IMG/VR virus record: IMGVR_UViG_2695420539_000016
Strand: one strand, 5' to 3'
DNA from: a virus
Lineage: Duplodnaviria > Heunggongvirae > Uroviricota > Caudoviricetes
DNA length: 37,459 nt
Part shown: one piece after another, positions 1-36,284 of the stretch
Layout: every line of letters starts with the position of its first letter
Numbering within the stretch: the first letter of the stretch is position 1
The notes under the pieces: model-generated
Told to the model about the DNA's origin: nothing
Databases searched by the model: none
Seen by the model: the letters and a program-made list of their open reading frames with translations, nothing else
Program-made: the position numbers and the translations under genes

Positions 1-405
1 ATGGATCAGGTCGTTGTTTTTCAAAAGATGTTTGAGCAAGTGAGAAAAGAGCAAAACTTCTCCTGGTTTTATTCAGAATTAAAACATCACCGTATTGCAC
101 ATTACATTTATTATCTGGCTACGGATAACATCAGAATTATTACTCACGATGACACGGTTTTGTTATTAAGAGGAACCAGGAACCTGTTAAAAGTTAGTAC
201 GACCAAGAACCCTGCTAAAATAAAAGAGGCCGCATTGCTTCATATTTGCGGAAAATCTACATTTCGGGAATACTGTTCAACACTAGCAGGCGCGGGCGTT
301 TTCCGGTGGGTTACTGATGTTAATCATAACAAACGCAGTTACTACGCCATTGATAATACGCTTTTATATATTGAAGATGTAGAAAATAATAAACCATTAA
401 TCTAG
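1..405 (+). CDS. ycgX: YcgX-like small protein (chromosomal, left-arm copy)
   Basis: 134-aa ORF immediately beyond iraM in the order icdC-iraM-ycgX-bluR that I recall for E. coli K-12; assignment rests on synteny and length, sequence not verified. Confidence 0.5.
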   Translation: MDQVVVFQKMFEQVRKEQNFSWFYSELKHHRIAHYIYYLATDNIRIITHDDTVLLLRGTRNLLKVSTTKNPAKIKEAALLHICGKSTFREYCSTLAGAGVFRWVTDVNHNKRSYYAIDNTLLYIEDVENNKPLI

Positions 406-613
406 CTAAAGTTGGATGCTTAAGAAATGCTTCATAATTCAGTAAGGCATTAGCATAATGGGAATAAAAGTACAGAGACTATCCCTATGGATGATAAATA
501 CTGTCCTTTTATTGCTACCCATAAATAATCACCATGCCAATACTATCAAATTGATATTTGAAATGTGATCACTTGACTTTCTATACGTTATTTTATAACG
601 GTTAATATATTTA

Positions 614-643
614 TAAAAACAACGGGTGTGCCATACGCCCGTT
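614..643 (-). terminator. icd-terminator-like hairpin (second, diverged copy)
   Basis: Stem AACGGG(T)G / CGCCCGTT, A-run upstream on + strand (T-run on - strand); about 55 bp resemble the icd 3' UTR/terminator. Confidence 0.3.
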
Positions 644-1100
644 TCAATACTTAACGCACATGTGTTTTGGTTTAGTCATCATCCAGTTATATGTATTTTA
701 GCCAGGAACAGGTTAAACCTTTCCTATATAACTCAAAAATTGAAACCTTATTCTCATGTCATGCTTATATTCATTATTATCGTTATATAAAAAGGCAACC
801 ATAATGTTTAGCAAATTGGCACAAAGTAGCATAAAGGCTATGTTTTAATTACAGGATGTTCAGTCATTTGAATGTATAACATTATAGCTAAACAAATCTA
901 AAACGAAGTGAATAATTTATTGTTTTCACTAAATCTCATTTTGTTTAACATCCATTGAGATTCCTTGCTTTAAATTTTGTTTTATATAAGCAATCGTTTT
1001 AATTAATTTATTTTTTGAAGGGGTAATATACTCATATGCAAAATAAAGAAATGAACATCCAAATGAACTATATTAAATACCGTGGGATAAGACATAACAA

Positions 1101-1424
1101 ATGAAGTGGATAGTAATTGACACGATAATTCAACCTTCATGCGGCATATCTTTTTCAGCCATATGGGGTAATATGAAAATGATCATCTGGTATCAATCTA
1201 CTATATTTCTCCCTCCTGGCAGTATATTTACACCGGTTAAATCTGGAATTATCCTTAAAGATAAAGAATATCCTATTACTATTTATAACATCGCACCATT
1301 CAACAAGGATTTATGGAGTCTACTCAAAAGCAGTCAAGAGTGTCCTCCAGGAGAAAGCAAAATAACAAATAAATGTTTGCATAATAGTTGCATTATAAAA
1401 ATATGCCCATATGGGCTCAAGTAA
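1101..1424 (+). CDS. iraM: Anti-adaptor protein IraM (RssB inhibitor), left-arm copy
   Basis: 107-aa [35 protein letters not shown]... matches my recollection of E. coli IraM (YcgW) nearly residue for residue; AT-rich context. Confidence 0.65.
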
Positions 1425-1471
1425 AGGGTTTTATATAAATATGCTCGATATGCTATTAATAATACCTACAT

Positions 1472-1504
1472 AAATAAAACAACGGGCGTGTTATACGCCC
1501 GTTG
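1472..1504 (-). terminator. icd rho-independent terminator (left-arm copy)
   Basis: GC-rich stem CAACGGGCG / CGCCCGTTG followed by T-run, directly after the icd-fragment stop. Confidence 0.5.
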
Positions 1505-1526
1505 CAATATTAAACACATGTAGTGA

Positions 1527-1691
1527 TTACATGTTCTTGATGATCGCATCACCAAATTCTGAACATTTCAGCAGTTTAGCGCCTTCCATCAGACGTTCGA
1601 AGTCATAGGTTACAGTCTTGGCGTTGATTGCGCCTTCCATACCTTTAACAATCAGGTCTGCGGCTTCAGTCCAGCCCATATGGCGTAACAT
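1527..1691 (-). pseudogene. icdC: icd 3' fragment (icdC), prophage attR relic, left-arm copy
   Basis: Translates [54 protein letters not shown], the C-terminus of isocitrate dehydrogenase; no upstream icd sequence, AT-rich phage-side DNA abuts it. Confidence 0.75.
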
Positions 1692-2227
1692 TAGATTTAG
1701 AAAATTATTATATCCAATTGAATTAAAACAATTTTATACTTAACGAACATCTAAACTTGTTTTTTTACCTTCACCATAACTCGCTGATTTTGTATAGTTT
1801 ACGTAGCGTTTTGATAACCACTTTATGGCAAAATGGAGGTTCGCTTGAAAACTTCTGTTCTTATCCAGAAATTAATGGAAATTGACAAAACTGTACTATT
1901 CGATGCGGACGTAGTGACCGGTGAGGAATGGTGGCCAACCCCGATTTCTCGTGTTTATCACAATCCGCCACATACTTATGTAGAATTTTAAACAGGTGAA
2001 CAATCTCAAAATGAATCTGACGAGCTAAGTGTTTATAGCGAATTACAAATTTGTGCACATCGAATGATGCAAATTAGAGATTTTGTGCAATCTAACGAGG
2101 GACTGAAACCTGAAAAAATTGTTTCGGAAATAAACATTCAAATTGAACGTATTAAAAAGTGATGGCTGAAGCAATTCTGAAACACTAATTCATATTCTAT
2201 GTTCTTCATACCAATGTGGATTTAACT

Positions 2228-2253
2228 CCCACCCACCCACCAACCCACCAACC
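2228..2253 (-). repeat. G-quadruplex-type G-tract cluster (C-rich on + strand), about 260 bp upstream of the GmrSD-like gene
   Basis: cccacccacccaccaacccaccaacc on + strand, i.e. GGG-N-GGG-N-GGG-N-GGG on - strand, isolated in AT-rich DNA. Confidence 0.35.
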
Positions 2254-2472
2254 ATGATTGGGCGGCGCAAGAAACTAATATCAATTAAAACAGCAAGTTA
2301 TCAGTCTAAACAGAACACCAACGGGATGGAGGAGAGACAAAAAATATCCAATGAAACCGTAGCGCGTCAGCATTCAAAAGCGGGGTTTCTTATTTTTACT
2401 TCACCAGTAACAAATACACTGTATCATAACTACATAAAAATGATTGTTCTGACTCAGATGAATTTCTTACTC

Positions 2473-2501
2473 TTGTGGAATGTCACTTAATGTTATTTAT
2501 A
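2473..2501 (+). promoter_or_regulatory. Candidate sigma70 promoter of the GmrSD-like gene (mirrored at 8412..8440 on - strand)
   Basis: TTGTGG, 17-bp spacer, TTTATA, then AGGT Shine-Dalgarno and ATG at 2510; read by eye. Confidence 0.25.
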
Positions 2502-2509
2502 GGTAAACA

Positions 2510-4399
2510 ATGAAATCCGAAACGCTAACCATCCAGCAAATTTTCCAAAATCAACGACAATATCGTGTTCCATTCTATCAACGTGCCTACGTATGGACGC
2601 AACGAAACCAATGGTCAGCTTTGTTGGAGGATATCTTCGAAAAAGCACAGAGCCGACTTTCGGGAACAAAACCAACCCCTCATTTCCTCGGCGCGGTGGT
2701 GCTGGAACCTCAACTCAAAAACAGCTTGTTAGGTGTAGATACCATACATATTATTGACGGCCAGCAACGTTTAACCACTCTTCAATATATTCTGGCATCC
2801 ATTCGATTATCATTGCGTGCTACAGGCCTTTCTGAACTGGAAGGGTTAGTATTGACTTGCTTGAAAAATACAAACGAAGCAACGATGAGAAATAAAAAGG
2901 TAGAATGCTTCAAACTGTGGCCAACTTTTCGAGATCAAACTCATTTTATTCAAAGTCTTAATGTTGATAATATTGACGATCTCCGTAATGTATTTTCTGA
3001 TAGCTTCACGCAACATGGTACGTTACGTAAACATTTCAACCACCCGCCGTCACTAGAGGCATTATGGTTTTTTACTGAAGCCTTTATAAAATGGATTAAA
3101 ATAGAAAACCACTCACCACAAGAAAATGCTGTAGCACTAATTGAGGCTGTCTTGACGGATCTGAAACTGGTAAGCATATTTCTCGAAGCTGAAGATGATG
3201 CCCAAATAATTTTTGAAACATTAAATGGGCGAGGAGCGGAACTTCATGCAACGGATCTTATTCGCAACTATATCTTTATGTGCGCTGAGCATGAAAATAT
3301 TAATGCTATTGAATTATATGAAAATGAGTGGAAGATCTTTGAAGATAAATACTGGTCGGAAAAGCAACGCCGTGGACGTATTAATAAACCACGCATGGAG
3401 TGGCTTGTACATGCGACATTGCAATCAGAAAGGCAGCGTGAAATTGATCTGTCTCGCCTTTACAATGAGTATCGTGATTATGTAAGTAAGGACTTGCCTT
3501 CACAACGAGCAGATCTGCAAGTAAAGCGCCTCAAACAATATGCATCACAATATAAAGAATTGGTTGGTGGTTTTGGCACAACCCCCATCTCACACTTTGG
3601 ACATCGCATCGCAGCCTATGATGTGACGACACTCTATCCGCTTGCTTTGTTCATTTCGATAGCTAACATCGCCGATGATGAGAAAGCAGCCATGTATAAT
3701 GATCTTGTCTCCTACGTAGTACGAAGATCCGTATGTGGCCTGACGCCAAAGAATTACAACAATGTATTTATGAATGTATTGCGACACTTGTCTAAAACGG
3801 AAATTTCCAGTGTTGAGTTACGTAATATCCTCAATAGCTTAAATGGCGAAGCCTCACGTTGGCCTGGGGACTCAGAATTTCTCAACGCTTGCATCAATGC
3901 TCCACTTTATCCTGGCAGGCTCGACGCACCGAAAATGCGCTCAATGTTAACGGAACTTGAAAGAGAACTTTGTCGCCAAGTGAAGACAGAAAAGCCTGAT
4001 GTTCCAAATCTTTCTAATCTCGATATCGATCATCTTATGCCTCAAAGTTGGTATTCCTGTTGGCCTCTCGAAAATGGTCATATGGTGACAAATTCAGATG
4101 CTACGGTAATGAACCAAATTGTTCTGTCTGGAACCGATCTTACCCCTGAACAGCTACTGGTAAGGAAACGGCAACAAGCGATAGCTACGTTGGGAAATCT
4201 AACTTTGCTTAACCTTAGCGTAAACCGTTCCGTTCAGAATGCTGTATTTCTGAAAAAACGTGATGCTCTCATCGTCCACACCAATCTACGACTGAACATA
4301 CCACTTATACTTAAGGATAAATGGGATGAGAGTGAAATACAGGAGCGAGGTAAAAAGTTGGGGGAAATTGCATTGAAAGTATGGCCAAAATACGATTAA
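2510..4399 (+). CDS. DUF262/DUF1524 protein, GmrSD/BrxU-type candidate type IV (modification-dependent) restriction endonuclease, left-arm copy
   Basis: 629 aa; N-terminal ParB-like DUF262 motifs YRVPFYQRAYVW and IIDGQQRLTTL; C-terminal DUF1524/HNH-like motifs DIDHLMPQ and GNLTLLNLSVNRSVQN. Confidence 0.8.
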   Translation: MKSETLTIQQIFQNQRQYRVPFYQRAYVWTQRNQWSALLEDIFEKAQSRLSGTKPTPHFLGAVVLEPQLKNSLLGVDTIHIIDGQQRLTTLQYILASIRLSLRATGLSELEGLVLTCLKNTNEATMRNKKVECFKLWPTFRDQTHFIQSLNVDNIDDLRNVFSDSFTQHGTLRKHFNHPPSLEALWFFTEAFIKWIKIENHSPQENAVALIEAVLTDLKLVSIFLEAEDDAQIIFETLNGRGAELHATDLIRNYIFMCAEHENINAIELYENEWKIFEDKYWSEKQRRGRINKPRMEWLVHATLQSERQREIDLSRLYNEYRDYVSKDLPSQRADLQVKRLKQYASQYKELVGGFGTTPISHFGHRIAAYDVTTLYPLALFISIANIADDEKAAMYNDLVSYVVRRSVCGLTPKNYNNVFMNVLRHLSKTEISSVELRNILNSLNGEASRWPGDSEFLNACINAPLYPGRLDAPKMRSMLTELERELCRQVKTEKPDVPNLSNLDIDHLMPQSWYSCWPLENGHMVTNSDATVMNQIVLSGTDLTPEQLLVRKRQQAIATLGNLTLLNLSVNRSVQNAVFLKKRDALIVHTNLRLNIPLILKDKWDESEIQERGKKLGEIALKVWPKYD

Positions 4400-4421
4400 T
4401 GCAATTAATAAAATGATTATA

Positions 4422-4445
4422 GCGGCCTTACATTAGTAAGGCCGC
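4422..4445. terminator. Hairpin between convergent pin stub and GmrSD-like gene (possible bidirectional terminator)
   Basis: Mirror of 6468..6491: 9-bp stem GCGGCCTTA / TAAGGCCGC, 6-nt loop. Confidence 0.35.
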
Positions 4446-4624
4446 AACTCACTATTAAATCCTTTAATTTGCATCAAGAACAGCACTGTCAGCCCTAGGC
4501 TCTCGGACTTTGTACCGCTTATCTTGTCTTCAAAAATCAGCTCGCATCCTGCACAGTTCAACGCATTACGTTGTAGATCGATTTTCTGGTCATTTGTTGA
4601 TACGCAAACATAGCCAATAAGCAT
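4433..4624 (-). pseudogene. Truncated Hin/Gin/Pin-family serine invertase (pin 5' stub, about 45 native codons)
   Basis: MLIGYVCVSTNDQKIDLQRNALNCAGCELIFEDKISGT... matches Pin/Gin N-terminus, then diverges into 18 unrelated codons and stops; conserved Arg before the catalytic Ser is Cys. Confidence 0.75.
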
Positions 4625-4650
4625 GGTAGCTCCCTCTGACAAAAGCAGGA

Positions 4651-5058
4651 ATGATGCCATTTTCTCGTTATTTCTGCATTTTCATAAACGTTGGTTTGGG
4701 AGAAGCGGCAAAACGGAATGTAGGTAACGGGCAAAACCAAATTCCGGATATGGCGGCGTTTGCCAGTTCACTTTCATCAACGGGTTTTCAAAAACTCCCT
4801 TCAGGTCTGATTATTCAGTGGGGTATTGTCAGTGGAGCATCAAACTATACGGTGACTTACCCGGTAACATTCCCAAATCGTTCACTTGCGCTGTTGGCTG
4901 TGCCACATACAACGTCGTTGGCTGGTATATCTGCAATGGGCATTGCGAACTGTTCTGATATCACCAAATCACAGTTCTATATAATTGTTGGCGGTATATC
5001 TCAGGGAGAAATTGTCAAATATGAAAGGTCCTGTTTTTGGGTAGCAATCGGTGTATAG
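4651..5058 (+). CDS. Tail-fibre variable C-terminal exon A, here orphaned (first codons come from the flank, not from a fibre constant region)
   Basis: Residues after GLGE are identical to the C-terminal part of the 218-aa fibre at 34814..35470; the leader MMPFSRYFCIFINV is antisense of the pin stub region. Confidence 0.5.
   Translation: MMPFSRYFCIFINVGLGEAAKRNVGNGQNQIPDMAAFASSLSSTGFQKLPSGLIIQWGIVSGASNYTVTYPVTFPNRSLALLAVPHTTSLAGISAMGIANCSDITKSQFYIIVGGISQGEIVKYERSCFWVAIGV
4679..4704. other. Hybrid crossover site: outer half-site is the inverted outer half of ixR, inner half-site is that of ixL
   Basis: TTTTCATAAACG-TT-GGTTTGGGAGAA; compare normal ixL at 35091..35116 (CTCTTCAAAACC-TT-GGTTTGGGAGAA) and ixR at 6209..6234. 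Confidence 0.55.
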
Positions 5059-5066
5059 GTATATCT

Positions 5067-5462
5067 ATGATTTATTTCTCAAAATCGACTAATGGTTTTT
5101 TCTTTGATGGTATAAACAGCGACATGCCTGCTGACATTGTTGAGATAAGTACAGACTTATACAATGAATTAATTGCCGGACAGCAGGAAGGGGGTAAATT
5201 AATCACGTCAGATGAAAATGGTTTACCGGTACTGAAATCTCCGGCGATTGATTATGTCGCACGTGCTGAAAATCAGCGAATGCAGTTACTTGCTCATGCC
5301 GATAATGTCACAGCTGACTGGCGAGTGGAATTAATGCTTGGTGATATCAGCAGTACAGATAAAGAAAAACTATCCGCCTGGATGGACTACAAAAAAGAAG
5401 TAAAAGCCGTCGACACTTCGACGGCTCCTGAGATTAGCTGGCCTGAGTTACCGGAGGTGTAG
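5067..5462 (+). CDS. Tail fibre assembly protein (Tfa), partner of exon A
   Basis: C-terminal motif VDTSTAPEISWPELPEV typical of lambda Tfa / Mu U family; weak RBS before ATG at 5067. Confidence 0.75.
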   Translation: MIYFSKSTNGFFFDGINSDMPADIVEISTDLYNELIAGQQEGGKLITSDENGLPVLKSPAIDYVARAENQRMQLLAHADNVTADWRVELMLGDISSTDKEKLSAWMDYKKEVKAVDTSTAPEISWPELPEV

Positions 5463-5871
5463 GCCATTCAATATCTGGAGCACTGGAGGTATCCACCAGT
5501 TCCAGTGCGTCCAGGTAATCCAGCCACAAATTATATAGTGCCAGTTCCTCGTCTTTCAGACGACCAATAGCGGCTTTACCGGGCCATTGTTTACTGTTCA
5601 TGTATTCGTTGGCCTGATTAAGCAATAATTGCCTTTCTGATTCTGCCTGTTGAATAAGTTCTTCATGCGATGGTGGAGGTATTAGTGCCCATGTGGGTAA
5701 TCCATTTTTTCCTGCAACACGAATTTTGTCATATGGGGGCGTATTGATTGCAAATTCATTATAAACATCATCACTGACAGCCAGAGCATCATCTGGCCAT
5801 GAATTTGCATTAATGTAATCATCCTTAAGCGCAGGATTCACAAAAATGTTTAATGATGGACTATAAAACAT
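5434..5871 (-). CDS. Tail fibre assembly protein (Tfa'), partner of exon B
   Basis: 145 aa ending ...LVDTSSAPDIEWPTPPVTQAS; convergent with the other tfa and overlapping its 3' end. Confidence 0.75.
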   Translation of the reverse strand: MFYSPSLNIFVNPALKDDYINANSWPDDALAVSDDVYNEFAINTPPYDKIRVAGKNGLPTWALIPPPSHEELIQQAESERQLLLNQANEYMNSKQWPGKAAIGRLKDEELALYNLWLDYLDALELVDTSSAPDIEWPTPPVTQAS

Positions 5872-5872
5872 A

Positions 5873-6262
5873 TTAACCCCCTATAGCGATATAACGACCT
5901 AATACAGCATTTGCAGCAGTCGCTATGCTTGAAAAACCGCGGAACTGATTTGATGTAATTGCAGAAGCCGACAGGATTCCTGCGCCTGAAGGTGTATGCC
6001 CCACATGACTAACTATCATTCCATAACATGCTGACGGAAAGGCAAAAGGAAAATCATTAAGATATCCGGCATCTTCACCACCAGACCCACCAAATCTCGC
6101 CTGCCCCCACTGAATAATCAGTGTTCTCCGGGAACCTGAAATAATTAACGGAATCGTTACATACCCATTCAGACCAATGACACCCGATGCAGTGCCAGCC
6201 AGAGATAATTCTCCCAAACCAACGTTTATGAAAATGCAGAAATAACGAGAAAATGGCATCAT
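5873..6262 (-). CDS. Tail-fibre variable C-terminal exon B (alternative receptor-binding domain) with the same 18-codon flank-derived leader
   Basis: Shares MMPFSRYFCIFINVGLGE with the exon A ORF, then a different Gly/Ser-rich C-terminal domain. Confidence 0.5.
   Translation of the reverse strand: MMPFSRYFCIFINVGLGELSLAGTASGVIGLNGYVTIPLIISGSRRTLIIQWGQARFGGSGGEDAGYLNDFPFAFPSACYGMIVSHVGHTPSGAGILSASAITSNQFRGFSSIATAANAVLGRYIAIGG
6209..6234. other. Crossover site ixR of the invertible segment, copy 1
   Basis: TTCTCCCAAACC-AA-CGTTTATGAAAA; inner half is the exact inverted repeat of the ixL inner half. Confidence 0.55.
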
Positions 6263-6288
6263 TCCTGCTTTTGTCAGAGGGAGCTACC

Positions 6289-6480
6289 ATGCTTATTGGC
6301 TATGTTTGCGTATCAACAAATGACCAGAAAATCGATCTACAACGTAATGCGTTGAACTGTGCAGGATGCGAGCTGATTTTTGAAGACAAGATAAGCGGTA
6401 CAAAGTCCGAGAGCCTAGGGCTGACAGTGCTGTTCTTGATGCAAATTAAAGGATTTAATAGTGAGTTGCGGCCTTACTAA
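6289..6480 (+). pseudogene. Truncated pin-type invertase stub (right-arm copy)
   Basis: Same as 4433..4624; GGGAG RBS then ATG; stop codon lies in the loop of the downstream hairpin. Confidence 0.75.
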
Positions 6481-6491
6481 TGTAAGGCCGC
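6468..6491. terminator. Hairpin between pin stub and GmrSD-like gene
   Basis: GCGGCCTTA-CTAATG-TAAGGCCGC, followed by TATAATCATTTTATT. Confidence 0.35.
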
Positions 6492-6513
6492 TATAATCAT
6501 TTTATTAATTGCA

Positions 6514-8403
6514 TTAATCGTATTTTGGCCATACTTTCAATGCAATTTCCCCCAACTTTTTACCTCGCTCCTGTATTTCACTCTCATCCCATTTATCCTT
6601 AAGTATAAGTGGTATGTTCAGTCGTAGATTGGTGTGGACGATGAGAGCATCACGTTTTTTCAGAAATACAGCATTCTGAACGGAACGGTTTACGCTAAGG
6701 TTAAGCAAAGTTAGATTTCCCAACGTAGCTATCGCTTGTTGCCGTTTCCTTACCAGTAGCTGTTCAGGGGTAAGATCGGTTCCAGACAGAACAATTTGGT
6801 TCATTACCGTAGCATCTGAATTTGTCACCATATGACCATTTTCGAGAGGCCAACAGGAATACCAACTTTGAGGCATAAGATGATCGATATCGAGATTAGA
6901 AAGATTTGGAACATCAGGCTTTTCTGTCTTCACTTGGCGACAAAGTTCTCTTTCAAGTTCCGTTAACATTGAGCGCATTTTCGGTGCGTCGAGCCTGCCA
7001 GGATAAAGTGGAGCATTGATGCAAGCGTTGAGAAATTCTGAGTCCCCAGGCCAACGTGAGGCTTCGCCATTTAAGCTATTGAGGATATTACGTAACTCAA
7101 CACTGGAAATTTCCGTTTTAGACAAGTGTCGCAATACATTCATAAATACATTGTTGTAATTCTTTGGCGTCAGGCCACATACGGATCTTCGTACTACGTA
7201 GGAGACAAGATCATTATACATGGCTGCTTTCTCATCATCGGCGATGTTAGCTATCGAAATGAACAAAGCAAGCGGATAGAGTGTCGTCACATCATAGGCT
7301 GCGATGCGATGTCCAAAGTGTGAGATGGGGGTTGTGCCAAAACCACCAACCAATTCTTTATATTGTGATGCATATTGTTTGAGGCGCTTTACTTGCAGAT
7401 CTGCTCGTTGTGAAGGCAAGTCCTTACTTACATAATCACGATACTCATTGTAAAGGCGAGACAGATCAATTTCACGCTGCCTTTCTGATTGCAATGTCGC
7501 ATGTACAAGCCACTCCATGCGTGGTTTATTAATACGTCCACGGCGTTGCTTTTCCGACCAGTATTTATCTTCAAAGATCTTCCACTCATTTTCATATAAT
7601 TCAATAGCATTAATATTTTCATGCTCAGCGCACATAAAGATATAGTTGCGAATAAGATCCGTTGCATGAAGTTCCGCTCCTCGCCCATTTAATGTTTCAA
7701 AAATTATTTGGGCATCATCTTCAGCTTCGAGAAATATGCTTACCAGTTTCAGATCCGTCAAGACAGCCTCAATTAGTGCTACAGCATTTTCTTGTGGTGA
7801 GTGGTTTTCTATTTTAATCCATTTTATAAAGGCTTCAGTAAAAAACCATAATGCCTCTAGTGACGGCGGGTGGTTGAAATGTTTACGTAACGTACCATGT
7901 TGCGTGAAGCTATCAGAAAATACATTACGGAGATCGTCAATATTATCAACATTAAGACTTTGAATAAAATGAGTTTGATCTCGAAAAGTTGGCCACAGTT
8001 TGAAGCATTCTACCTTTTTATTTCTCATCGTTGCTTCGTTTGTATTTTTCAAGCAAGTCAATACTAACCCTTCCAGTTCAGAAAGGCCTGTAGCACGCAA
8101 TGATAATCGAATGGATGCCAGAATATATTGAAGAGTGGTTAAACGTTGCTGGCCGTCAATAATATGTATGGTATCTACACCTAACAAGCTGTTTTTGAGT
8201 TGAGGTTCCAGCACCACCGCGCCGAGGAAATGAGGGGTTGGTTTTGTTCCCGAAAGTCGGCTCTGTGCTTTTTCGAAGATATCCTCCAACAAAGCTGACC
8301 ATTGGTTTCGTTGCGTCCATACGTAGGCACGTTGATAGAATGGAACACGATATTGTCGTTGATTTTGGAAAATTTGCTGGATGGTTAGCGTTTCGGATTT
8401 CAT
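6514..8403 (-). CDS. DUF262/DUF1524 GmrSD/BrxU-type candidate type IV restriction endonuclease (right-arm copy)
   Basis: Identical 629-aa translation to 2510..4399. Confidence 0.8.
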   Translation of the reverse strand: MKSETLTIQQIFQNQRQYRVPFYQRAYVWTQRNQWSALLEDIFEKAQSRLSGTKPTPHFLGAVVLEPQLKNSLLGVDTIHIIDGQQRLTTLQYILASIRLSLRATGLSELEGLVLTCLKNTNEATMRNKKVECFKLWPTFRDQTHFIQSLNVDNIDDLRNVFSDSFTQHGTLRKHFNHPPSLEALWFFTEAFIKWIKIENHSPQENAVALIEAVLTDLKLVSIFLEAEDDAQIIFETLNGRGAELHATDLIRNYIFMCAEHENINAIELYENEWKIFEDKYWSEKQRRGRINKPRMEWLVHATLQSERQREIDLSRLYNEYRDYVSKDLPSQRADLQVKRLKQYASQYKELVGGFGTTPISHFGHRIAAYDVTTLYPLALFISIANIADDEKAAMYNDLVSYVVRRSVCGLTPKNYNNVFMNVLRHLSKTEISSVELRNILNSLNGEASRWPGDSEFLNACINAPLYPGRLDAPKMRSMLTELERELCRQVKTEKPDVPNLSNLDIDHLMPQSWYSCWPLENGHMVTNSDATVMNQIVLSGTDLTPEQLLVRKRQQAIATLGNLTLLNLSVNRSVQNAVFLKKRDALIVHTNLRLNIPLILKDKWDESEIQERGKKLGEIALKVWPKYD

Positions 8404-8659
8404 TGTTTACCTATAAATAACATTAAGTGACATTCCACAAGAGTAAGAAATTCATCTGAGTCAGAACAATCATTTTTATGTAGTTATGATACAGTGTATT
8501 TGTTACTGGTGAAGTAAAAATAAGAAACCCCGCTTTTGAATGCTGACGCGCTACGGTTTCATTGGATATTTTTTGTCTCTCCTCCATCCCGTTGGTGTTC
8601 TGTTTAGACTGATAACTTGCTGTTTTAATTGATATTAGTTTCTTGCGCCGCCCAATCAT

Positions 8660-8685
8660 GGTTGGTGGGTTGGTGGGTGGGTGGG
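8660..8685 (+). repeat. G-quadruplex-type motif upstream of the GmrSD-like gene
   Basis: ggttggtgggttggtgggtgggtggg. Confidence 0.35.
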
Positions 8686-9221
8686 AGTTAAATCCACATT
8701 GGTATGAAGAACATAGAATATGAATTAGTGTTTCAGAATTGCTTCAGCCATCACTTTTTAATACGTTCAATTTGAATGTTTATTTCCGAAACAATTTTTT
8801 CAGGTTTCAGTCCCTCGTTAGATTGCACAAAATCTCTAATTTGCATCATTCGATGTGCACAAATTTGTAATTCGCTATAAACACTTAGCTCGTCAGATTC
8901 ATTTTGAGATTGTTCACCTGTTTAAAATTCTACATAAGTATGTGGCGGATTGTGATAAACACGAGAAATCGGGGTTGGCCACCATTCCTCACCGGTCACT
9001 ACGTCCGCATCGAATAGTACAGTTTTGTCAATTTCCATTAATTTCTGGATAAGAACAGAAGTTTTCAAGCGAACCTCCATTTTGCCATAAAGTGGTTATC
9101 AAAACGCTACGTAAACTATACAAAATCAGCGAGTTATGGTGAAGGTAAAAAAACAAGTTTAGATGTTCGTTAAGTATAAAATTGTTTTAATTCAATTGGA
9201 TATAATAATTTTCTAAATCTA

Positions 9222-9386
9222 ATGTTACGCCATATGGGCTGGACTGAAGCCGCAGACCTGATTGTTAAAGGTATGGAAGGCGCAATCAACGCCAAGACTG
9301 TAACCTATGACTTCGAACGTCTGATGGAAGGCGCTAAACTGCTGAAATGTTCAGAATTTGGTGATGCGATCATCAAGAACATGTAA
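9222..9386 (+). pseudogene. icdC: icd 3' fragment (icdC), prophage right attachment relic
   Basis: 54 codons encoding the Icd C-terminus; homology starts abruptly at 9222 after AT-rich phage-side DNA. Confidence 0.75.
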
Positions 9387-9408
9387 TCACTACATGTGTT
9401 TAATATTG

Positions 9409-9441
9409 CAACGGGCGTATAACACGCCCGTTGTTTTATTT
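9409..9441 (+). terminator. icd rho-independent terminator
   Basis: CAACGGGCG-TATAACA-CGCCCGTTG followed by TTTTATTT. Confidence 0.55.
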
Positions 9442-9488
9442 ATGTAGGTATTATTAATAGCATATCGAGCATATTTATATAAAACCCT

Positions 9489-9812
9489 TTACTTGAGCCC
9501 ATATGGGCATATTTTTATAATGCAACTATTATGCAAACATTTATTTGTTATTTTGCTTTCTCCTGGAGGACACTCTTGACTGCTTTTGAGTAGACTCCAT
9601 AAATCCTTGTTGAATGGTGCGATGTTATAAATAGTAATAGGATATTCTTTATCTTTAAGGATAATTCCAGATTTAACCGGTGTAAATATACTGCCAGGAG
9701 GGAGAAATATAGTAGATTGATACCAGATGATCATTTTCATATTACCCCATATGGCTGAAAAAGATATGCCGCATGAAGGTTGAATTATCGTGTCAATTAC
9801 TATCCACTTCAT
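9489..9812 (-). CDS. iraM: Anti-adaptor protein IraM (right-arm copy)
   Basis: Identical translation to 1101..1424. Confidence 0.65.
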
Positions 9813-10269
9813 TTGTTATGTCTTATCCCACGGTATTTAATATAGTTCATTTGGATGTTCATTTCTTTATTTTGCATATGAGTATATTACCCCTTCAAAA
9901 AATAAATTAATTAAAACGATTGCTTATATAAAACAAAATTTAAAGCAAGGAATCTCAATGGATGTTAAACAAAATGAGATTTAGTGAAAACAATAAATTA
10001 TTCACTTCGTTTTAGATTTGTTTAGCTATAATGTTATACATTCAAATGACTGAACATCCTGTAATTAAAACATAGCCTTTATGCTACTTTGTGCCAATTT
10101 GCTAAACATTATGGTTGCCTTTTTATATAACGATAATAATGAATATAAGCATGACATGAGAATAAGGTTTCAATTTTTGAGTTATATAGGAAAGGTTTAA
10201 CCTGTTCCTGGCTAAAATACATATAACTGGATGATGACTAAACCAAAACACATGTGCGTTAAGTATTGA

Positions 10270-10299
10270 AACGGGCGTATGGCACACCCGTTGTTTTTA
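10270..10299 (+). terminator. Second icd-terminator-like hairpin (diverged duplicate)
   Basis: AACGGGCG-TATGGCA-CACCCGTT then TGTTTTTAT; upstream bases also resemble the icd 3' UTR. Confidence 0.3.
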
Positions 10300-10507
10300 T
10301 AAATATATTAACCGTTATAAAATAACGTATAGAAAGTCAAGTGATCACATTTCAAATATCAATTTGATAGTATTGGCATGGTGATTATTTATGGGTAGCA
10401 ATAAAAGGACAGTATTTATCATCCATAGGGATAGTCTCTGTACTTTTATTCCCATTATGCTAATGCCTTACTGAATTATGAAGCATTTCTTAAGCATCCA
10501 ACTTTAG

Positions 10508-10912
10508 CTAGATTAATGGTTTATTATTTTCTACATCTTCAATATATAAAAGCGTATTATCAATGGCGTAGTAACTGCGTTTGTTATGATTAACATCAGT
10601 AACCCACCGGAAAACGCCCGCGCCTGCTAGTGTTGAACAGTATTCCCGAAATGTAGATTTTCCGCAAATATGAAGCAATGCGGCCTCTTTTATTTTAGCA
10701 GGGTTCTTGGTCGTACTAACTTTTAACAGGTTCCTGGTTCCTCTTAATAACAAAACCGTGTCATCGTGAGTAATAATTCTGATGTTATCCGTAGCCAGAT
10801 AATAAATGTAATGTGCAATACGGTGATGTTTTAATTCTGAATAAAACCAGGAGAAGTTTTGCTCTTTTCTCACTTGCTCAAACATCTTTTGAAAAACAAC
10901 GACCTGATCCAT
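10508..10912 (-). CDS. ycgX: YcgX-like small protein (right-arm copy)
   Basis: Identical translation to 1..405; GAGG RBS lies at 10913+ so the gene context continues naturally past the visible palindrome edge. Confidence 0.5.
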   Translation of the reverse strand: MDQVVVFQKMFEQVRKEQNFSWFYSELKHHRIAHYIYYLATDNIRIITHDDTVLLLRGTRNLLKVSTTKNPAKIKEAALLHICGKSTFREYCSTLAGAGVFRWVTDVNHNKRSYYAIDNTLLYIEDVENNKPLI

Positions 10913-11132: not shown

Positions 11133-11400
11133 TTAGGGGGCATGAAAGATGACTTTATAACCTTGCTCACCCCAATGTTGTAAAAGTTCGTTTTGCCTTC
11201 TCGTTGGTGCCATGCCTGTCCAGACAATCAATGTTTGCGTCGGGAACAGTTCCGGGCGCGGCGATTCAATGGGATCAGCAAGAACAGAAATGTGCCATCC
11301 TGACAATGATAAACGCCATGCTTCCAGCCACAATCGTGCTCTCTCTTCAACATTCCACGCCATCAGAATGGCTTCTTTACCGGGCTTACGGCGCATTACT
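11133..11400 (-). pseudogene. bluR: 3' fragment of a BluR/MlrA-type MerR-family regulator; by synteny probably bluR (ycgE)
   Basis: C-terminal roughly 85 codons of the 168-aa ORF (...[52 protein letters not shown]...) resemble the BluR/MlrA C-terminal domain as I recall it; no MerR HTH region exists upstream on this strand. Confidence 0.45.
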
Positions 11401-12289
11401 GCTGGAGCCTGAGCCGGAGCATTATTCATCTTTCGCCAGTGGTGCCGTTCCCGCGGCATCACAACCGCTGGCGGATGATCCTGTCGTTCGGGCCGTGTTC
11501 CGTAATGAGGCAGTGATTCGTCGTGCTGGTGGGGTGGAATGTCTTGAAAGCTGGTTACTTCGTGAAAAAGGCTGCCAGTGGCCTCATTCCGACTGGCACA
11601 GCGAGAACATGACCACAATGCGACACGCGCCGGGCGCAATCCGTCTGTGCTGGCACTGCGATAACCAGTTGCGCGATCAGTTCACGGAACGGCTGGAATC
11701 AATGGCAACGGATAACTGTGCCCGCTGGGTATTGTCTGTTGTGCGTCGGGATCTCGGTTTTGATGATAGTCACGTTGTGACAATGCCGGAACTGTGCTGG
11801 TGGCTGGTTCGTAATGACCTGGCGGATGCCTTACCGGAAAGTGCAGCCCGTAAGGCACTGAGATTACCGAAGCCTGTTGTGCCGTCTGTCACCCGGGAAA
11901 GTGACCTTGTGCCTTCGGTTCCTGCCACCAGCATCATCCAGGATAAGGCGAAAAAGGTGCTGGCGCTGAAAGTGGATCCGGAGTCGCCGGAGTCTTTTAT
12001 GTTACGCCCAAAACGTCGCCGCTGGGCTAATGAAAAGTACACGCGCTGGGTTAAGACACAGCCGTGTGCATGTTGTGGAAAGCTTGCTGATGATCCCCAC
12101 CACCTGATAGGCGACGGTCAGGGGGGAATGGGTACAAAAGCGCATGACCTCTTTGTGTTGCCTTTGTGCAGAAAGCATCACGACGATCTGCATGCGGATA
12201 CCGTGGCATTTGAAGAAAAGTATGGCTCCCAGTTGGAGCTGATATTTCGTTTTATCGATCGTGCGCTGGCAATTGGCGTGCTGGCGTAA
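11204..12289 (+). CDS. DUF968-type phage protein (Qin YdfU-like) with C-terminal Cys/His zinc-binding motif; 5' end uncertain and probably truncated by the junction
   Basis: C-terminus ...[24 protein letters not shown]...[12 protein letters not shown]; the track start is a TTG and the first roughly 60 codons are antisense to the bluR fragment; first in-frame ATG beyond the joint is at 11609. Confidence 0.5.
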
Positions 12290-13736: not shown

Positions 13737-14543
13737 GTGGAATCGAAAGTGTCATATTTTTACAGAAGCAAGAATATTTCAGGTGTTTCTATAAATGAAG
13801 ATAGCTTGATTAGCTTAAGCACGGCAATTGTCGAACGCTGCGTTAAAATGAATGAGCAAGCTCAAAAGGAAAGTAGGGAAGTTTGTGCTCAATGTGTTTT
13901 TTTTATTTTGTTCGATGGTAAGGGGTATAAAGTTGATTCTATCGGTGAGCTTGTGAAATACTTTAGACAGGCCACTAGGATTGATCAAATAATTTTTACT
14001 ATTGAAACTTATCAAAGTCGACAGTCTAACAGGATGAATGGATCTTGGATGGAGCTACGAATTGATGAGAGGAATTCAAATAGCAGCACAATGATTGTAG
14101 CATCGGAAGATAATGAGTGGGTTGACTCGTTATGGATTACGATTCAGGATTTACTTAACAAGTGCAAAAATAAATTTAGATTTTTTAGAACAGCTTGGAC
14201 TATGTTAAGTATCCAGATTTCAGGTGTGACAGTTGGCTTTTTGCTTAGCTTATGGACAGCCTCAAAACTGGCGCCAAAACTATCAATCGATGGTGCATTT
14301 GCTTTATCATTTATTTGTATCTTTATTTTGTTTTCGAACTTATGGAGCTTTGCTATTCCATTAATAATTAAGCTTATCGACTTTTTGTTTCCTAGTGTTA
14401 AGTTTGTTATTAATGGTAAAAATTACTTTCACTGGAGTGTCCAGGCTATAATTGGAGCGATTGCCAGTGCGGTTATATTGTATTTTATTAGCTCCATGTT
14501 GCTTTTTGCATTAGAAATGTTAAATAGCATCATTAAGAAATAG
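13737..14543 (+). CDS. Membrane protein with soluble N-terminal domain and about four C-terminal transmembrane helices (moron 1, gene 2)
   Basis: 268-aa ORF (GTG start in the track; first ATG at 13848); hydrophobic C-terminal stretches; visibly AT-rich against neighbouring phage genes. Confidence 0.5.
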   Translation: MESKVSYFYRSKNISGVSINEDSLISLSTAIVERCVKMNEQAQKESREVCAQCVFFILFDGKGYKVDSIGELVKYFRQATRIDQIIFTIETYQSRQSNRMNGSWMELRIDERNSNSSTMIVASEDNEWVDSLWITIQDLLNKCKNKFRFFRTAWTMLSIQISGVTVGFLLSLWTASKLAPKLSIDGAFALSFICIFILFSNLWSFAIPLIIKLIDFLFPSVKFVINGKNYFHWSVQAIIGAIASAVILYFISSMLLFALEMLNSIIKK

Positions 14544-14651
14544 TTAATGAATTAGTTATAATTACATCAATTCTATGGCTGCCAAATGGTGGCCTTTTTT
14601 ATTCCTCTCATTTCTATTTCTGAGAGGACTCACTGCAATAAGAGGTGGCTA

Positions 14652-15038
14652 ATGTCCGATCCGATTTCCGGCACAGGGTTAGCTGGTGGAGCCCTAACGG
14701 GCGCTAGTATTTATGGACTGCTGACCGGAACTGATTACGGCGTTGTATTTGGCGCATTTGCAGGGGCTGTATTCTACATAGCAACAGCAGCAGATCTGAG
14801 TGCATCGCGCCGACTAGCATATTTTATCGTGTCATATATTGCCGGGATCCTTTGCTCTGGGTTGGTTGGCTCCAAGCTGGCGAACTTGACCGGATACAGT
14901 GATAAACCTCTGGATGCTATTGGTGCCGTAATCGTCTCTGCTTTAGCCGTTAAAATCCTGACGTTCCTGAATAATCAGGATATCGGCTCGCTGGTGGCGC
15001 TCATAACGCGCCGGGGAGGTTCAGGTGGAGCTAAATGA
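14652..15038 (+). CDS. Holin-like glycine-rich multi-pass membrane protein (lysis cassette)
   Basis: ATG 14652 preceded by GAGGTGG; first gene of the lysis block. Confidence 0.5.
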   Translation: MSDPISGTGLAGGALTGASIYGLLTGTDYGVVFGAFAGAVFYIATAADLSASRRLAYFIVSYIAGILCSGLVGSKLANLTGYSDKPLDAIGAVIVSALAVKILTFLNNQDIGSLVALITRRGGSGGAK

Positions 15039-15306
15039 CCCGACAGCAACTATAAATGCGCTGTTATGTGCTTGTGTTGTTATTACTCTGATGTTTTATC
15101 GTCGTGGCGACTCCAGACATCGACCGTGGATATCTCGCTTAGCGTGGCTGCTTACGGTCATTTATAGCGCCGTACCGCTGGCGTATCTGTGCGGTATCTA
15201 CCCTTATTCATCGTGGGCCACTATCGTGGCCAACATTATTTTCCTGTCCGTGCTGGTCGCCGTCAGAGGCAATGTGGCACGTCTGGTTGACCATCTGAGG
15301 CACTAA
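15025..15306 (+). CDS. Holin/antiholin-like small membrane protein (three predicted TM segments)
   Basis: GTG start with GGAGG RBS; overlaps previous gene; immediately precedes the endolysin. Confidence 0.45.
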   Translation: MELNDPTATINALLCACVVITLMFYRRGDSRHRPWISRLAWLLTVIYSAVPLAYLCGIYPYSSWATIVANIIFLSVLVAVRGNVARLVDHLRH

Positions 15307-15920
15307 TGAACCAATCACAATTTCAGCAGGCGGCTGGTATCAGCGCCGATGTTTCTGCACGCTGGTTTCCGCACATTGATGCGGCAATGAAAGAGTTTGG
15401 TATTACAGCAGTTAATGATCAGGCCATGTTCATTGCACAAGTCGGGCATGAGTCTGCAGGATTTACTTCGCTGGCAGAGAGTTTTAACTACTCGGTTGAA
15501 GGGCTGAAGAAAACCTTTGGTAAGCGTCTGACGCCGTACCAGTGCGAAATGCTGGGGCGTGTCGATGGTAAACAGGTCGCTCACCAGCCGCAAATAGCCA
15601 ATCTGGTTTACGGTGACCGCATGGGGAATAACAGCCAGGGTGACGGCTGGAAATATCGCGGTCGTGGCCTGCTTCAAATTACTGGCCGTGAGAACTACAC
15701 CAAATGTGGTGCGGCGCTGAAACTTGACCTTGTCAATACACCAGAATTGCTAACGCAGGAGCGACATGCGGCCCGTTCGGCGGCGTGGTACTTCACGTTA
15801 CGCGGTTGCTTGATGTATTCGGGTGACGTGGAACGTGTAACGCAGATTATTAACGGCGGACAGAATGGCATTAAAGACCGCCGTGAACGTTACGCCAAAG
15901 CAAAAGCCGCACTGGTATGA
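15306..15920 (+). CDS. Endolysin, glycoside hydrolase family 19 (chitinase-class lysozyme)
   Basis: Motifs QVGHESAGFT and YRGRGLLQITGRENY; GAGG RBS. Confidence 0.8.
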   Translation: MNQSQFQQAAGISADVSARWFPHIDAAMKEFGITAVNDQAMFIAQVGHESAGFTSLAESFNYSVEGLKKTFGKRLTPYQCEMLGRVDGKQVAHQPQIANLVYGDRMGNNSQGDGWKYRGRGLLQITGRENYTKCGAALKLDLVNTPELLTQERHAARSAAWYFTLRGCLMYSGDVERVTQIINGGQNGIKDRRERYAKAKAALV

Positions 15921-15927
15921 GGTCACT

Positions 15928-16197
15928 ATGGGACTTGAAATGATTATCGGCCTGGTTGTTGCTGTGCTGGCTGCAATTGCAGGTGCTTTTGGTCTGGGTA
16001 AATCACGCGGTACAAGTATCGCAGAAACAAAAGCGGACCAGCAACGCACTGAAGAACGTGCAGCTGCTACTGAAGCCGTTGCAGAACGTAGGGTAGAGAC
16101 AACAAAAGGAGCCTGGGATGTACAGCAGACTGTTAATCATCTACCTGATGACGATGTTGACCGTGAGTTGCGCGAAAACTTTACCCGCAAAACCTGA
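15928..16197 (+). CDS. Rz-like i-spanin
   Basis: N-terminal TM helix MIIGLVVAVLAAIAGAF then charged periplasmic region; ATG 15928 with GAGG RBS. Confidence 0.6.
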   Translation: MGLEMIIGLVVAVLAAIAGAFGLGKSRGTSIAETKADQQRTEERAAATEAVAERRVETTKGAWDVQQTVNHLPDDDVDRELRENFTRKT

Positions 16198-16336
16198 AGT
16201 AACGGACACGGCCTGTGACTGGGTAAGAATCATCTACCTCACAGGTCAGGACATTGAAGTGCTGGATAAGCTTACGAAGCGGGATATTCTGGCACATAAC
16301 AAAGCAGTACAGCGCAACTGTATTAGCCAGTTATGA
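16118..16336 (+). CDS. Rz1-like o-spanin lipoprotein, overlapping the 3' end of Rz in another frame
   Basis: Signal sequence ending LTVSC (lipobox-like); AAAGGAG RBS. Confidence 0.5.
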   Translation: MYSRLLIIYLMTMLTVSCAKTLPAKPEVTDTACDWVRIIYLTGQDIEVLDKLTKRDILAHNKAVQRNCISQL

Positions 16337-16347
16337 GGCAAACGAGA

Positions 16348-16370
16348 TTGCGGGCAATTATCGCCCGCAA
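16348..16370. terminator. Hairpin between convergent Rz1 and the antisense moron gene
   Basis: TTGCGGGC-AATTATC-GCCCGCAA. Confidence 0.35.
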
Positions 16371-16378
16371 TAAAGTTA

Positions 16379-16795
16379 TCAATTATCTCCTTTAAAGGAG
16401 TCGTATTCACCCCAATCAGCAAACCCAATCGGTCTTTTAGGGGTCTCTAAGCATAAGCGTTTTTTTCGGATTAGCAGGACATTTATTTGAGATACATGCT
16501 GAACAAGTTCTACAGGACTGCCATCCTCCAGAGTACCAATGAAAGAAATTAATGATGGATTCCAGTAGCTTATGTCTGTGAAATGAAATTCAATGTTTTT
16601 ACCAAAGCTAGCTAGTTGTCCTCCTACCTCATACTCTTCTTCAAGTTCACGGTGAAAATCATTTATCCAGCATATAAGGCGTCTATGAAATTCATTTGCA
16701 AGATTGTAGTCCTTTGGAACATATGGCTGTGAGTATTTGAGGAAATCATTCATGTAGTTATTTGTCATCAGGGCGTCCTTTACGAGCATAACCAT
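16379..16795 (-). CDS. Hypothetical 138-aa protein, antisense to the late operon (moron 2)
   Basis: Only substantial minus-strand ORF lying in an intergenic gap of the late region; AT-richer than its neighbours. Confidence 0.45.
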   Translation of the reverse strand: MVMLVKDALMTNNYMNDFLKYSQPYVPKDYNLANEFHRRLICWINDFHRELEEEYEVGGQLASFGKNIEFHFTDISYWNPSLISFIGTLEDGSPVELVQHVSQINVLLIRKKRLCLETPKRPIGFADWGEYDSFKGDN

Positions 16796-16866
16796 TGTTA
16801 CTTAACGGATTGAAACGCTATTAAATAACATGGTTTCTATCATAATTTCTATCCGGAGTTTTCCAT

Positions 16867-17217
16867 ATGCCGCCACGAATCCCAAAAGCCTGCCGTGTTC
16901 GCGGCTGCCGTTCTACCACTACAGATCCGTCAGGCTACTGCGAAAATCATAAAGGTGAGGGCTGGAAATCCTACAAGCCAGGTCAATCACGGCAGCAGCG
17001 CGGATATGGAACAAAGTGGGAAGTCATCCGGGAGCGGATACTAAAGCGCGACAAAGGGTTATGTCAGAACCATCTTCGGCAGGGAGTTGTGAAGCAAGCG
17101 TCCTGCGTGGACCACCTCAAGGCGAAGGCTCACGGCGGCACTGATGAAGACAGCAACCTTGAGAGTCTGTGCTGGTCGTGTCACGCAGTGAAGACCGCGC
17201 GTGAGCGGTTCAGGTGA
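16867..17217 (+). CDS. HNH endonuclease (terminase-associated)
   Basis: CxxC...HNH...CxxCH pattern: CRVRGC, CQNH, VDHLKAKAHGG, CWSCH. Confidence 0.8.
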   Translation: MPPRIPKACRVRGCRSTTTDPSGYCENHKGEGWKSYKPGQSRQQRGYGTKWEVIRERILKRDKGLCQNHLRQGVVKQASCVDHLKAKAHGGTDEDSNLESLCWSCHAVKTARERFR

Positions 17218-17343
17218 GAATTGATGTCATCATCAGCCAGGGGAGGGGGAGGTCGAATCTTTGCAACCGCGCGCCTTCCGGACTGCCCGCCCCATCGTTT
17301 TTTTATACCCGCGAAAAATGAAATTTAACCAGGAGTGCCGCAT

Positions 17344-17838
17344 ATGGCTGGAACGGCGGGGCGTTCCGGGCGTCGCCCCAAGCCAACGGCGCGCAAGGCG
17401 CTGGCCGGAAACCCCGGCAAGCGAGCCCTGAATAAAGATGAACCTGTTTTTACGCCCATCAAAGGTGTTGAGCCACCGGAGTGGTTCGCTGAAGAAGATC
17501 TCCCTCTCGCCACGATCATGTGGCAACTGACAACTAAAGAACTCTGCGGTCAGGGCCTGCTGTGCGTGACTGACCTCGCAGTGCTTGAGCGGTGGTGTGT
17601 GGCCTATGAGTTCTGGCGACGTGCCGTGAAAAATATTGCCAGACAGGGCAACACCATCACCGGTGCAATGGGCGGTATGGTCAAAAATCCGGAGCTGACC
17701 GCCAAAAAAGAACAGGAGTCCGAGATGAGCAGTACGGGGGCAATGCTCGGACTCGACCCCAGCAGCCGCCAGCGTCTGATTGGCCTGGCGGGGAAGAAGA
17801 AAGCCACTAACCCGTTTCTGAAAATCATCGAATCATGA
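17344..17838 (+). CDS. Terminase small subunit (P27-family type)
   Basis: ATG 17344 with AGGAG RBS; basic N-terminus; ATGA overlap with large terminase. Confidence 0.7.
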
Positions 17839-19568: not shown

Positions 19569-19579
19569 CTGAGGTAATT

Positions 19580-19762
19580 ATGATCATGCTGATTCTCGCG
19601 CCTCTGGTGGGCGTGCTGGGGGCGCTTTTGCTGGCGTATGGTGCCTGGCTGATTTATCCCCCGGCGGGGTTTGTTGTTGCCGGGGCGTTGTGCCTGTTCT
19701 GGTCGTGGCTGGTGGCGCGATATCTCGACCGTACACAGTCGTCTGTCGGCGGAGGTAAATAG
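19580..19762 (+). CDS. Small two-TM membrane protein of unknown function
   Basis: 60 aa with GAGG RBS, strongly hydrophobic. Confidence 0.35.
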
Positions 19763-21631: not shown

Positions 21632-21645
21632 TCAGGAGAAATACG

Positions 21646-22851: not shown

Positions 22852-22861
22852 TCGCTCATGG

Positions 22862-22881
22862 GCGCGGTTCCGCGCCCCCTG
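22862..22881 (+). terminator. GC-rich hairpin just after the capsid gene (possible partial terminator)
   Basis: GGGCGCGG-TT-CCGCGCCC; no clean T-tract. Confidence 0.25.
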
Positions 22882-22900
22882 TTCTGAAGGGTGAAGAATC

Positions 22901-23128
22901 ATGATCCTGAAACAAGATCTTAAATGGTCACCGGACGGTATGCGTGTTGAGGTTATTAGGGCCGGTGAGTATGACGACGGGGCGCTTCCTGCCCGGGTGC
23001 AGGAGATTGCACTTCAGGCCGGGTTAGCAGAGCGCGGAACCAGTGCAAAAAGCAGTAAAGCGGCAAAAGAGAAAAAGCCACGGCCAGTAAAGAGGGATGA
23101 GAATGCTTCTGACACTGGAAGAGATTAA
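22901..23128 (+). CDS. Hypothetical small head-module protein
   Basis: 75-aa ORF between capsid and connector genes. Confidence 0.35.
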   Translation: MILKQDLKWSPDGMRVEVIRAGEYDDGALPARVQEIALQAGLAERGTSAKSSKAAKEKKPRPVKRDENASDTGRD

Positions 23129-24871: not shown

Positions 24872-24879
24872 GGATCCTC

Positions 24880-29129: not shown

Positions 29130-29157
29130 CCAGGATTCCCCTCACAGGTATTGCTGG

Positions 29158-29185: not shown

Positions 29186-29220
29186 TAATGCACATTTAGA
29201 AAAATGTTAATAGGCGAAAA

Positions 29221-36283: not shown

Positions 36284-36284
36284 A

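Follow-up and report, generated by a model that had tools for sequence, protein, structure and literature searches.

The 37,459-nucleotide window (the whole stretch of DNA that was analysed) reads, from its sequence, as an e14-type prophage with an SfV/Mu-like tail, integrated at icd in Escherichia coli. Near-identical prophages occupy icd in many E. coli genomes, for example A8, with which the window is colinear at 99.7-100% identity through the tail genes, fibre, segment, pin remnant, GmrSD gene, icd′, iraM and ycgX. The gene order runs from an HK97-type head through a Mu/SfV-type tail and a YmfQ/Gp48 gene to a 218-aa Gp53-like fibre and a cassette, which holds two tail-fibre assembly genes and a second, inverted Gp53-like C-terminus. 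The cassette is followed by a partial ‘recombinase family protein’, a DUF262 (GmrSD) gene, the icd′ remnant, iraM, ymgK/L, ycgX and bluR. Differences from A8 are not evenly spread: over positions 14500..37459, 46 of the 68 cluster in 33177..34443, comprising baseplate J and YmfQ just upstream of the fibre, which suggests a recombination patch rather than even divergence. The baseplate J protein itself is very widespread (2547 blocks in the look-up, from ordinary chromosomes only). The coordinates of the features discussed below are collected in Table 1.

Table 1. Features of the tail-fibre switch, its repeats and the flanking DNA, in window coordinates.
Feature	Position	Strand	Basis or remarks
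Left palindrome arm outside the site, inverted copy of 6235..10912	1..4678	-	100% complementary; reaches window position 1
pixR, reversed (a ‘hybrid’ site in the earlier note)	4679..4704	-	TTTTCATAAACG TT GGTTTGGGAGAA (outer half, core, inner half)
14-bp block TTGGTTTGGGAGAA (core and inner half-site), common to pixL and pixR	4691..4704		Alignment of sites
Invertible P-type segment, 1504 bp	4705..6208		Between pix sites; inverted between strains 22-245 and 22-250
Variable tail-fibre C-terminus A	4705..5058	+	Pfam Gp53-like_C
Tail-fibre assembly gene A	5067..5462	+	Pfam Caudo_TAP
Tail-fibre assembly gene B	5434..5871	-	Pfam Caudo_TAP
Variable C-terminus B	5873..6208	-	Pfam Gp53-like_C
pixR, invertase-proximal	6209..6234	+	TTCTCCCAAACC AA CGTTTATGAAAA; second copy 36621..36646
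pin remnant, codons 1-49	6289..6435	+	Copies 4478..4624 (-) and 36701..36847 (+)
GmrSD-type (DUF262/DUF1524) type IV restriction gene	6514..8403	-	Pfam GmrSD_N 1.7e-33, GmrSD_C 4.9e-20
Non-natural head-to-tail joint, right end to left end	11397..11399		bluR interior (through 11397) joined to DUF968 codon 34 (from 11399)
Tail-fibre constant N-terminal part, ending in the pixL outer half	34814..35102	+	Colinear with A8 AOY61_RS24490
pixL, within the tail-fibre gene	35091..35116	+	CTCTTCAAAACC TT GGTTTGGGAGAA
Second direct copy of 4691..7047 (P segment, pixR, pin remnant, part of the GmrSD gene)	35103..37459	+	Reaches window end

The cassette has the layout of a tail-fibre switch. A constant N-terminal part lies outside the invertible segment, whilst two C-termini and two chaperones lie inside it (Pfam: Gp53-like_C twice, Caudo_TAP twice), and the reading frame is kept either way. 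The fibre ORF in the window, 34814..35470, has a Gp53-like_C match; whichever way the segment lies, the fibre stays in frame, with 218 aa in one state and 212 aa in the other, and is joined at ...NLGLGE, a stretch encoded by the recombination site, and RefSeq annotation includes both forms. This is the arrangement of the P-inversion system of the K-12 prophage e14, with its pixL and pixR sites, the invertase pinE, the fibre genes stfE and stfP and the assembly genes tfaE and tfaP (Plasterk and van de Putte 1985, cited in PMC4272514 and PMC3241671). The window shares with K-12 e14 the icd site, a pixR identical at 26/26 positions, a pixL matching at 24/26, the 14-bp exchange block, and a head-to-head cassette of two fibre C-termini and two chaperones beside pin. 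It differs in that the segment measures 1504 bp as against 1797 bp, that the prophage is of full length with an SfV/Mu tail where K-12 e14 is a 15-kb remnant, and that only 49 codons of pin remain, with a GmrSD gene after them. As in Mu Gin/gix and P1 Cin/cix, the switch acts on the C-terminus of the tail fibre, although the half-site sequences and segment contents differ here from those of Gin/gix (Mu), Cin/cix (P1) and Hin/hix (Salmonella). Moreover, the Gin, Cin and Hin systems have an intact adjacent invertase gene that contains the Fis enhancer, unlike the window.

Each pix site is 26 bp long, with two 12-bp imperfect inverted half-sites flanking a 2-bp core, and all four copies in the window agree with TTC---AAAC- -A -GTTT---GAA, the consensus for dix. 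The 19-mer AAACNTTGGTTTGGGAGAA occurs four times in the window, where shuffles give an expectation of 0.00. The published e14 pixR is TTCTCCCAAACC AA CGTTTATGAAAA (PMC3241671, Table 3, Din-family sites), and the right site of the window matches it at 26/26 positions. The published pixL is TTCTCCCAAACC AA GGTTTTCGAGAG (PMC3241671); the left site, whose reverse complement is TTCTCCCAAACC AA GGTTTTGAAGAG, has two changes from it (24/26). An exact pixL is present in strain UPEC-245U, where the same cassette adjoins an intact pinE. The e14 P segment has been reported to invert at TTGGTTTGGGAGAAGG and its complement (PMC12529663, 2025), and the 14-mer at 4691..4704 is that inversion site. The cores match and the sites are inverted with respect to each other: TT at 35103-35104 in pixL, and AA (TT on the other strand) at 6221-6222 and 36633-36634 in the two copies of pixR, across a 1504-bp spacer. 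Over their 26 bp, pixL and pixR differ by 7 mismatches and share a 14-bp exact repeat.

The earlier note on this DNA had taken the site at 4679..4704 to be a hybrid, with the inverted outer half of one site and a core and inner half shared with the other. The letters of the three 26-mers (4679..4704, 35091..35116 and 6209..6234) read as it gave them, and identity to the window-end copy does start at 4691 (= 35103) and holds for 2357/2357 bases, with a difference at the preceding base. The site is, however, no hybrid: 4679..4704 and 6209..6234 are exact reverse complements, and both are the published pixR at 26/26. The only ‘foreign’ sequence there is the flank past 4704 (GCGGCAAAAC...). The note had further argued that a breakpoint at the exchange dinucleotide is what strand exchange by a serine invertase would leave. 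Core and inner half-site are identical in pixL and pixR, and a breakpoint placed at the core is therefore no independent evidence. With the palindrome arm reaching to 4704 and the direct repeat running from 4691, the 14 bp of overlap are part of both. The repeat begins at the core only because the base beside it is not the same in the two outer half-sites (G at 4690, C at 35102). We therefore rejected the identity boundary as evidence for the cleavage position, as that difference forces it; judged by sequence, the exchange could have fallen at any position within 4691..4704, without the core being singled out.

At 4679..4704 the invertase-side flank meets the left end of the segment, a junction that is normal for the switch once flipped. 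Two E. coli isolates from chicken meat in Gifu, 22-245 and 22-250, illustrate this. Their genomes measure 5,073,334 and 5,073,329 bp, the locus lies at equal coordinates, and the flanks (~4 kb and ~5 kb beside the segment) are 100% identical; the inter-site DNA alone is inverted, with endpoints inside the 14-bp block. In 22-250 the invertase-side (pin-proximal) junction is identical to window 4679..4704 with its flank. Across 5426 complete E. coli genomes both junction types occur. A 101-mer over the junction (4650..4750) is spanned in 784 of them and the corresponding ‘parental’ 101-mer (6163..6263) in 45, and the orientation that the window presents as parental is therefore the rarer one among finished genomes. 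Put in terms of modules, the C-terminus at the left end of the segment adjoins the invertase-side flank in 784 genomes and the other module does so in 45; the imbalance may reflect module sharing with K-12 e14 rather than a bias of orientation. A 36-mer over the junction is also found exactly in at least 83 IMG/VR contigs. A serine-invertase origin of the junction, as the earlier note proposed, is thus upheld by the published pix sites and by the recurrence of the same junction in 22-250, in finished genomes and in IMG/VR. Its reading as a special hybrid site or a unique event is not. The site was already known, and the switch is the e14 P-inversion, known since 1985.

The same data bear on whether an invertase was needed at all. 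The junction could have arisen by template switching or fold-back where the two sites form a short inverted repeat, be it in replication, in whole-genome amplification or while the library was prepared, or by assembler collapse with only one orientation in the reads. In favour of such an origin, the exchange point is unresolvable within 14 bases, so that homology-guided switching gives an identical sequence, and a second, illegitimate joint without homology elsewhere in the window shows that the DNA or library was prone to rearrangement. We nevertheless hold this account to be very unlikely. The junction is standard in hundreds of finished genomes, and sister isolates differ by a clean inversion. 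Collapse within the shared half-site, which the earlier note had kept as an alternative, is unlikely, as no assembler works with k-mers or overlaps as short as the 14-bp exact repeat (26 bp with 7 mismatches); therefore, junction-bearing reads must have existed. Fold-back chimeras are spacer-less hairpins at random positions, whereas here a 1504-bp loop is bounded by known sites. A fold-back or missed-adapter chimera was rejected, since the loop is exactly the segment between two pix sites.

The gene next to pixR can no longer supply the enzyme. A tblastn search of the window with intact PinE matched residues 1-49 only, three times, and detected no other recombinase. Of the 145 positions in the Pfam Resolvase profile, the remnant matches only 2-54. 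Cys stands where the YVRVS motif has its conserved Arg, and the ORF leaves homology and stops at 6480; RefSeq labels it ‘recombinase family protein, incomplete’. No intact serine invertase gene lies beside a site in the window. The pix sites are orphan Din-family sites rather than part of a self-contained system, because only PinE residues 1-49 and no other recombinase are encoded in the window. Where the 3′ part of pin is missing, the GmrSD gene stands on the opposite strand and with low GC (0.395 for the GmrSD stretch vs 0.547 for the late genes). The pin remnant and GmrSD gene form a block (6289..8403, with copies at 2510..4624 and 36701..37459) that recurs in the annotation of many E. coli genomes. 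A search of 5426 E. coli genomes found the 3′ part of pin that the block lacks in 2044. The defence gene appears to have displaced the invertase and left the pix sites intact.

With the local pin a dead 49-codon remnant, flipping would therefore require a Pin-type enzyme in trans, which at this locus would presumably come from another prophage. PinQ, PinR and PinE have all been reported to invert the e14 P segment (PMC12529663). The window resembles the trans-inversion of e14 by PinQ and PinR in having TTGGTTTGGGAGAA sites and an enzyme encoded elsewhere (PMC12529663). It departs from K-12, where an intact local pinE contributes, in that the local gene is dead and supply in trans would be obligatory. 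In 22-245 and 22-250 the local pin is the same dead remnant, yet the segment is inverted between them, which implies recent flipping by an invertase encoded elsewhere. The cis-acting part of the gene may have survived. The Hin enhancer measures 65 bp, lies ~100 bp from a hix site and can act over many kb (PMC3798978). Here, 214 bp from the pixR core are retained at 87% identity to intact pinE (blastn) and cover the homologous enhancer position, and therefore a homologous enhancer could be retained; the putative Fis enhancer position, ~100-165 bp from the site by analogy, would fall within this stretch. A Fis-consensus scan of the remnant gave one match, at 6359, which is loose and too weak to use.

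Around the segment lies a palindrome. A whole-window repeat search with a base-by-base check found an inverted repeat with arms 1..4704 and 6209..10912, complementary at 4704/4704 positions, around a spacer of 1504 bp. It also found a direct repeat, 4691..7047 = 35103..37459, identical at 2357/2357 positions; the search itself had placed its start near 4686/35098. The left arm carries ycgX, ymgL/ymgK, iraM, the icd′ remnant (attR), the GmrSD gene and the pin remnant, all reverse-complemented and identified by colinearity with A8. Window edges, not divergence, terminate both long repeats. A genuine palindrome should lie on one molecule, with arms that end inside the sequence. None of the 5426 complete E. 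coli genomes covers at least 80% of 3700..7200, whilst each half of that interval is found separately at 99.9% in complete genomes, and in the window itself the arm is stopped by the edge. The window starts at the exact ATG of the reverse-complemented ycgX copy (1..405) and its other end lies inside the GmrSD gene, which suggests trimming of the left end at a gene boundary, in the manner of provirus-boundary tools, and a right end set by the contig. In the parent contig the palindrome may continue further.

Similar topologies in IMG/VR point to the origin of the palindrome. Among 80 independent junction-bearing contigs, the first site beyond the segment has a pixL-type outer half in 44, and for 26 the fetched DNA holds no far-side site. 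Five (L007, L023, L034, L067 and L073 in our numbering) have pixR on both sides, the topology of the window. Their arms measure 51, 51, 75, 79 and 75 nt, respectively, and each runs into the contig end. Arms of 51-79 nt at contig ends are the k-1 overlap signature of a de Bruijn contig that stops at a branch, and therefore reads of both orientations existed in those samples. In an assembly graph, an invertible segment is linked at both ends to the same two neighbours (PMC5103826). As in that case, the linear output must choose a path, and the five contigs show the effect at this locus. In contrast to it, the window path does not stop at the branch and continues 4.7 kb into the reverse-complemented flank; arms so much longer than those of the five contigs require a path-resolving assembler or long reads, which weighs against this account. 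So does the absence from the window of the fourth junction expected from flipped molecules, between the constant part of the fibre and C-terminus B. As a side observation, in six IMG/VR loci (L006, L023, L047, L067, L056 and L077) the 14-bp pix block occurs three or four times and not always in the same direction; in L067 three blocks are forward (at 952, 2508 and 3980) and one is reverse (at 5913). The pattern points to tail-fibre switches of a multi-segment, Min/shufflon-like kind.

We consider it likely that the window records an e14 switch flipped by a trans-supplied Pin-type enzyme, and that the palindrome is an assembly path through a segment present in two orientations. The layout is that of a Din-family switch, with pixL within the fibre gene, a 1504-bp segment with two C-termini and their chaperones, and pixR beside the invertase gene. 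A Pin-type serine invertase would cut both pix sites at the central 2 bp, breaking both strands with a 2-nt stagger, and the half-sites would be rotated by 180 degrees, giving the flipped state; the enzyme would be supplied in trans by another prophage, as documented for e14 with PinQ and PinR. The sequenced DNA would have held both orientations, so that each segment end was linked to both flanks in the graph. The assembler could then have walked from the invertase flank (reverse) through the segment into the invertase flank (forward), on through the rest of a 30.4-kb unit, and again through the segment to the start of the invertase flank. The 100% identity of the arms and of the direct copy is as expected if the same graph edges were emitted twice. 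On this reading the 4.7-kb palindrome is not the product of a single recombination event. The artefact is probably the presence of both junction types around one copy of the segment, that is the palindrome, rather than the junction itself. A mixture of strains, instead of active flipping within a single clone, might account for the two orientations.

The 30.4-kb unit stems from a second anomaly, the head-to-tail joint at 11397/11399, which has one filler base and no microhomology. The joint gives rise to a fused ORF (11204..12289) and to a repeating unit of 30,412 bp, made up of the late half of the prophage and attR with ~2 kb of host DNA, which covers iraM, ycgX and a portion of bluR. The unit is without the phage replication genes that lie to the left of DUF968. 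The joint was found in 0 of 5426 E. coli genomes, and exact-pattern scans of viral, genome and metagenome contigs likewise returned 0. A megablast search of plasmids and phages gave no record of the joint or of the full region, and none of three candidate fusion proteins across the joint is on record. The joint looks real, which points to rearranged or circular source DNA; the source would then have held a circular or tandemly repeated 30.4-kb piece. As to the nature of the joint, a circle, a tandem amplification and a chimera are all conceivable.

Such a piece opens a route to a real palindromic molecule, in which a Pin-type invertase recombined the pixR of one tandem 30.4-kb copy with the pixL of the next. 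The whole unit would thereby be inverted, leaving invertase flank (reverse), segment and invertase flank (forward) head-to-head. The geometry allows this: pixR and the pixL of the next copy are inverted and 28.9 kb apart, and neighbouring copies may exist, given the head-to-tail joint and more than one unit length in the window. Recombination of pixR(n) with pixL(n+1) would give the exact 4679..4704 junction followed by a normal segment and pixR, and the many-kb reach of the Hin enhancer (PMC3798978) would accommodate the distance. We judge this reading unlikely. The arrangement occurs in 0 of 5426 complete E. coli genomes, the simpler walk through the graph predicts the identical sequence, and the short-arm versions at contig ends of unrelated assemblies can only be graph overlaps. 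Moreover, the unit has no intact invertase, and the lack of phage replication genes makes a replicating concatemer unlikely. In a more specific form, illegitimate recombination would have produced a true circular or tandem 30.4-kb element, after which a trans-acting Pin enzyme joined the pix sites of neighbouring copies into a physical palindrome. We regard this as rather improbable, and it is with similar reserve that we liken such an element to a specialised-transducing genome. If true, it would amount to an off-target, genome-scale action of a tail-fibre switch.

A chromosomal inverted duplication of the right end of the prophage in the source strain, of the tandem-inverted-duplication type, would likewise place the palindrome on a real molecule. 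The perfect identity of the arms and the duplication-type joint at 11397/11399 fit a recent amplification. In that type of rearrangement both joints are of the inversion type and lie at quasi-palindromes; of the joints in the window, one is direct and one falls at an enzyme-specific site pair. The duplication is seen in 0/5426 complete genomes, and the window edges end both repeats. We consider it very unlikely.

Taken together, these data favour an assembly path through a known switch. Where tail-fibre segments exist in two orientations in a culture or community, assemblers emit contig ends that are palindromic or carry inverted repeats. Such ends call for caution, since one may take them for palindromes of biological origin, for inverted terminal repeats or for new ‘hybrid’ sites. 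The only biological addition to the e14 P-inversion is a switch that has apparently lost its own invertase to a GmrSD insertion and is still flipped between near-identical isolates. Flipping without a local invertase fits the recent evidence that Pin enzymes of other prophages work the switch in trans.
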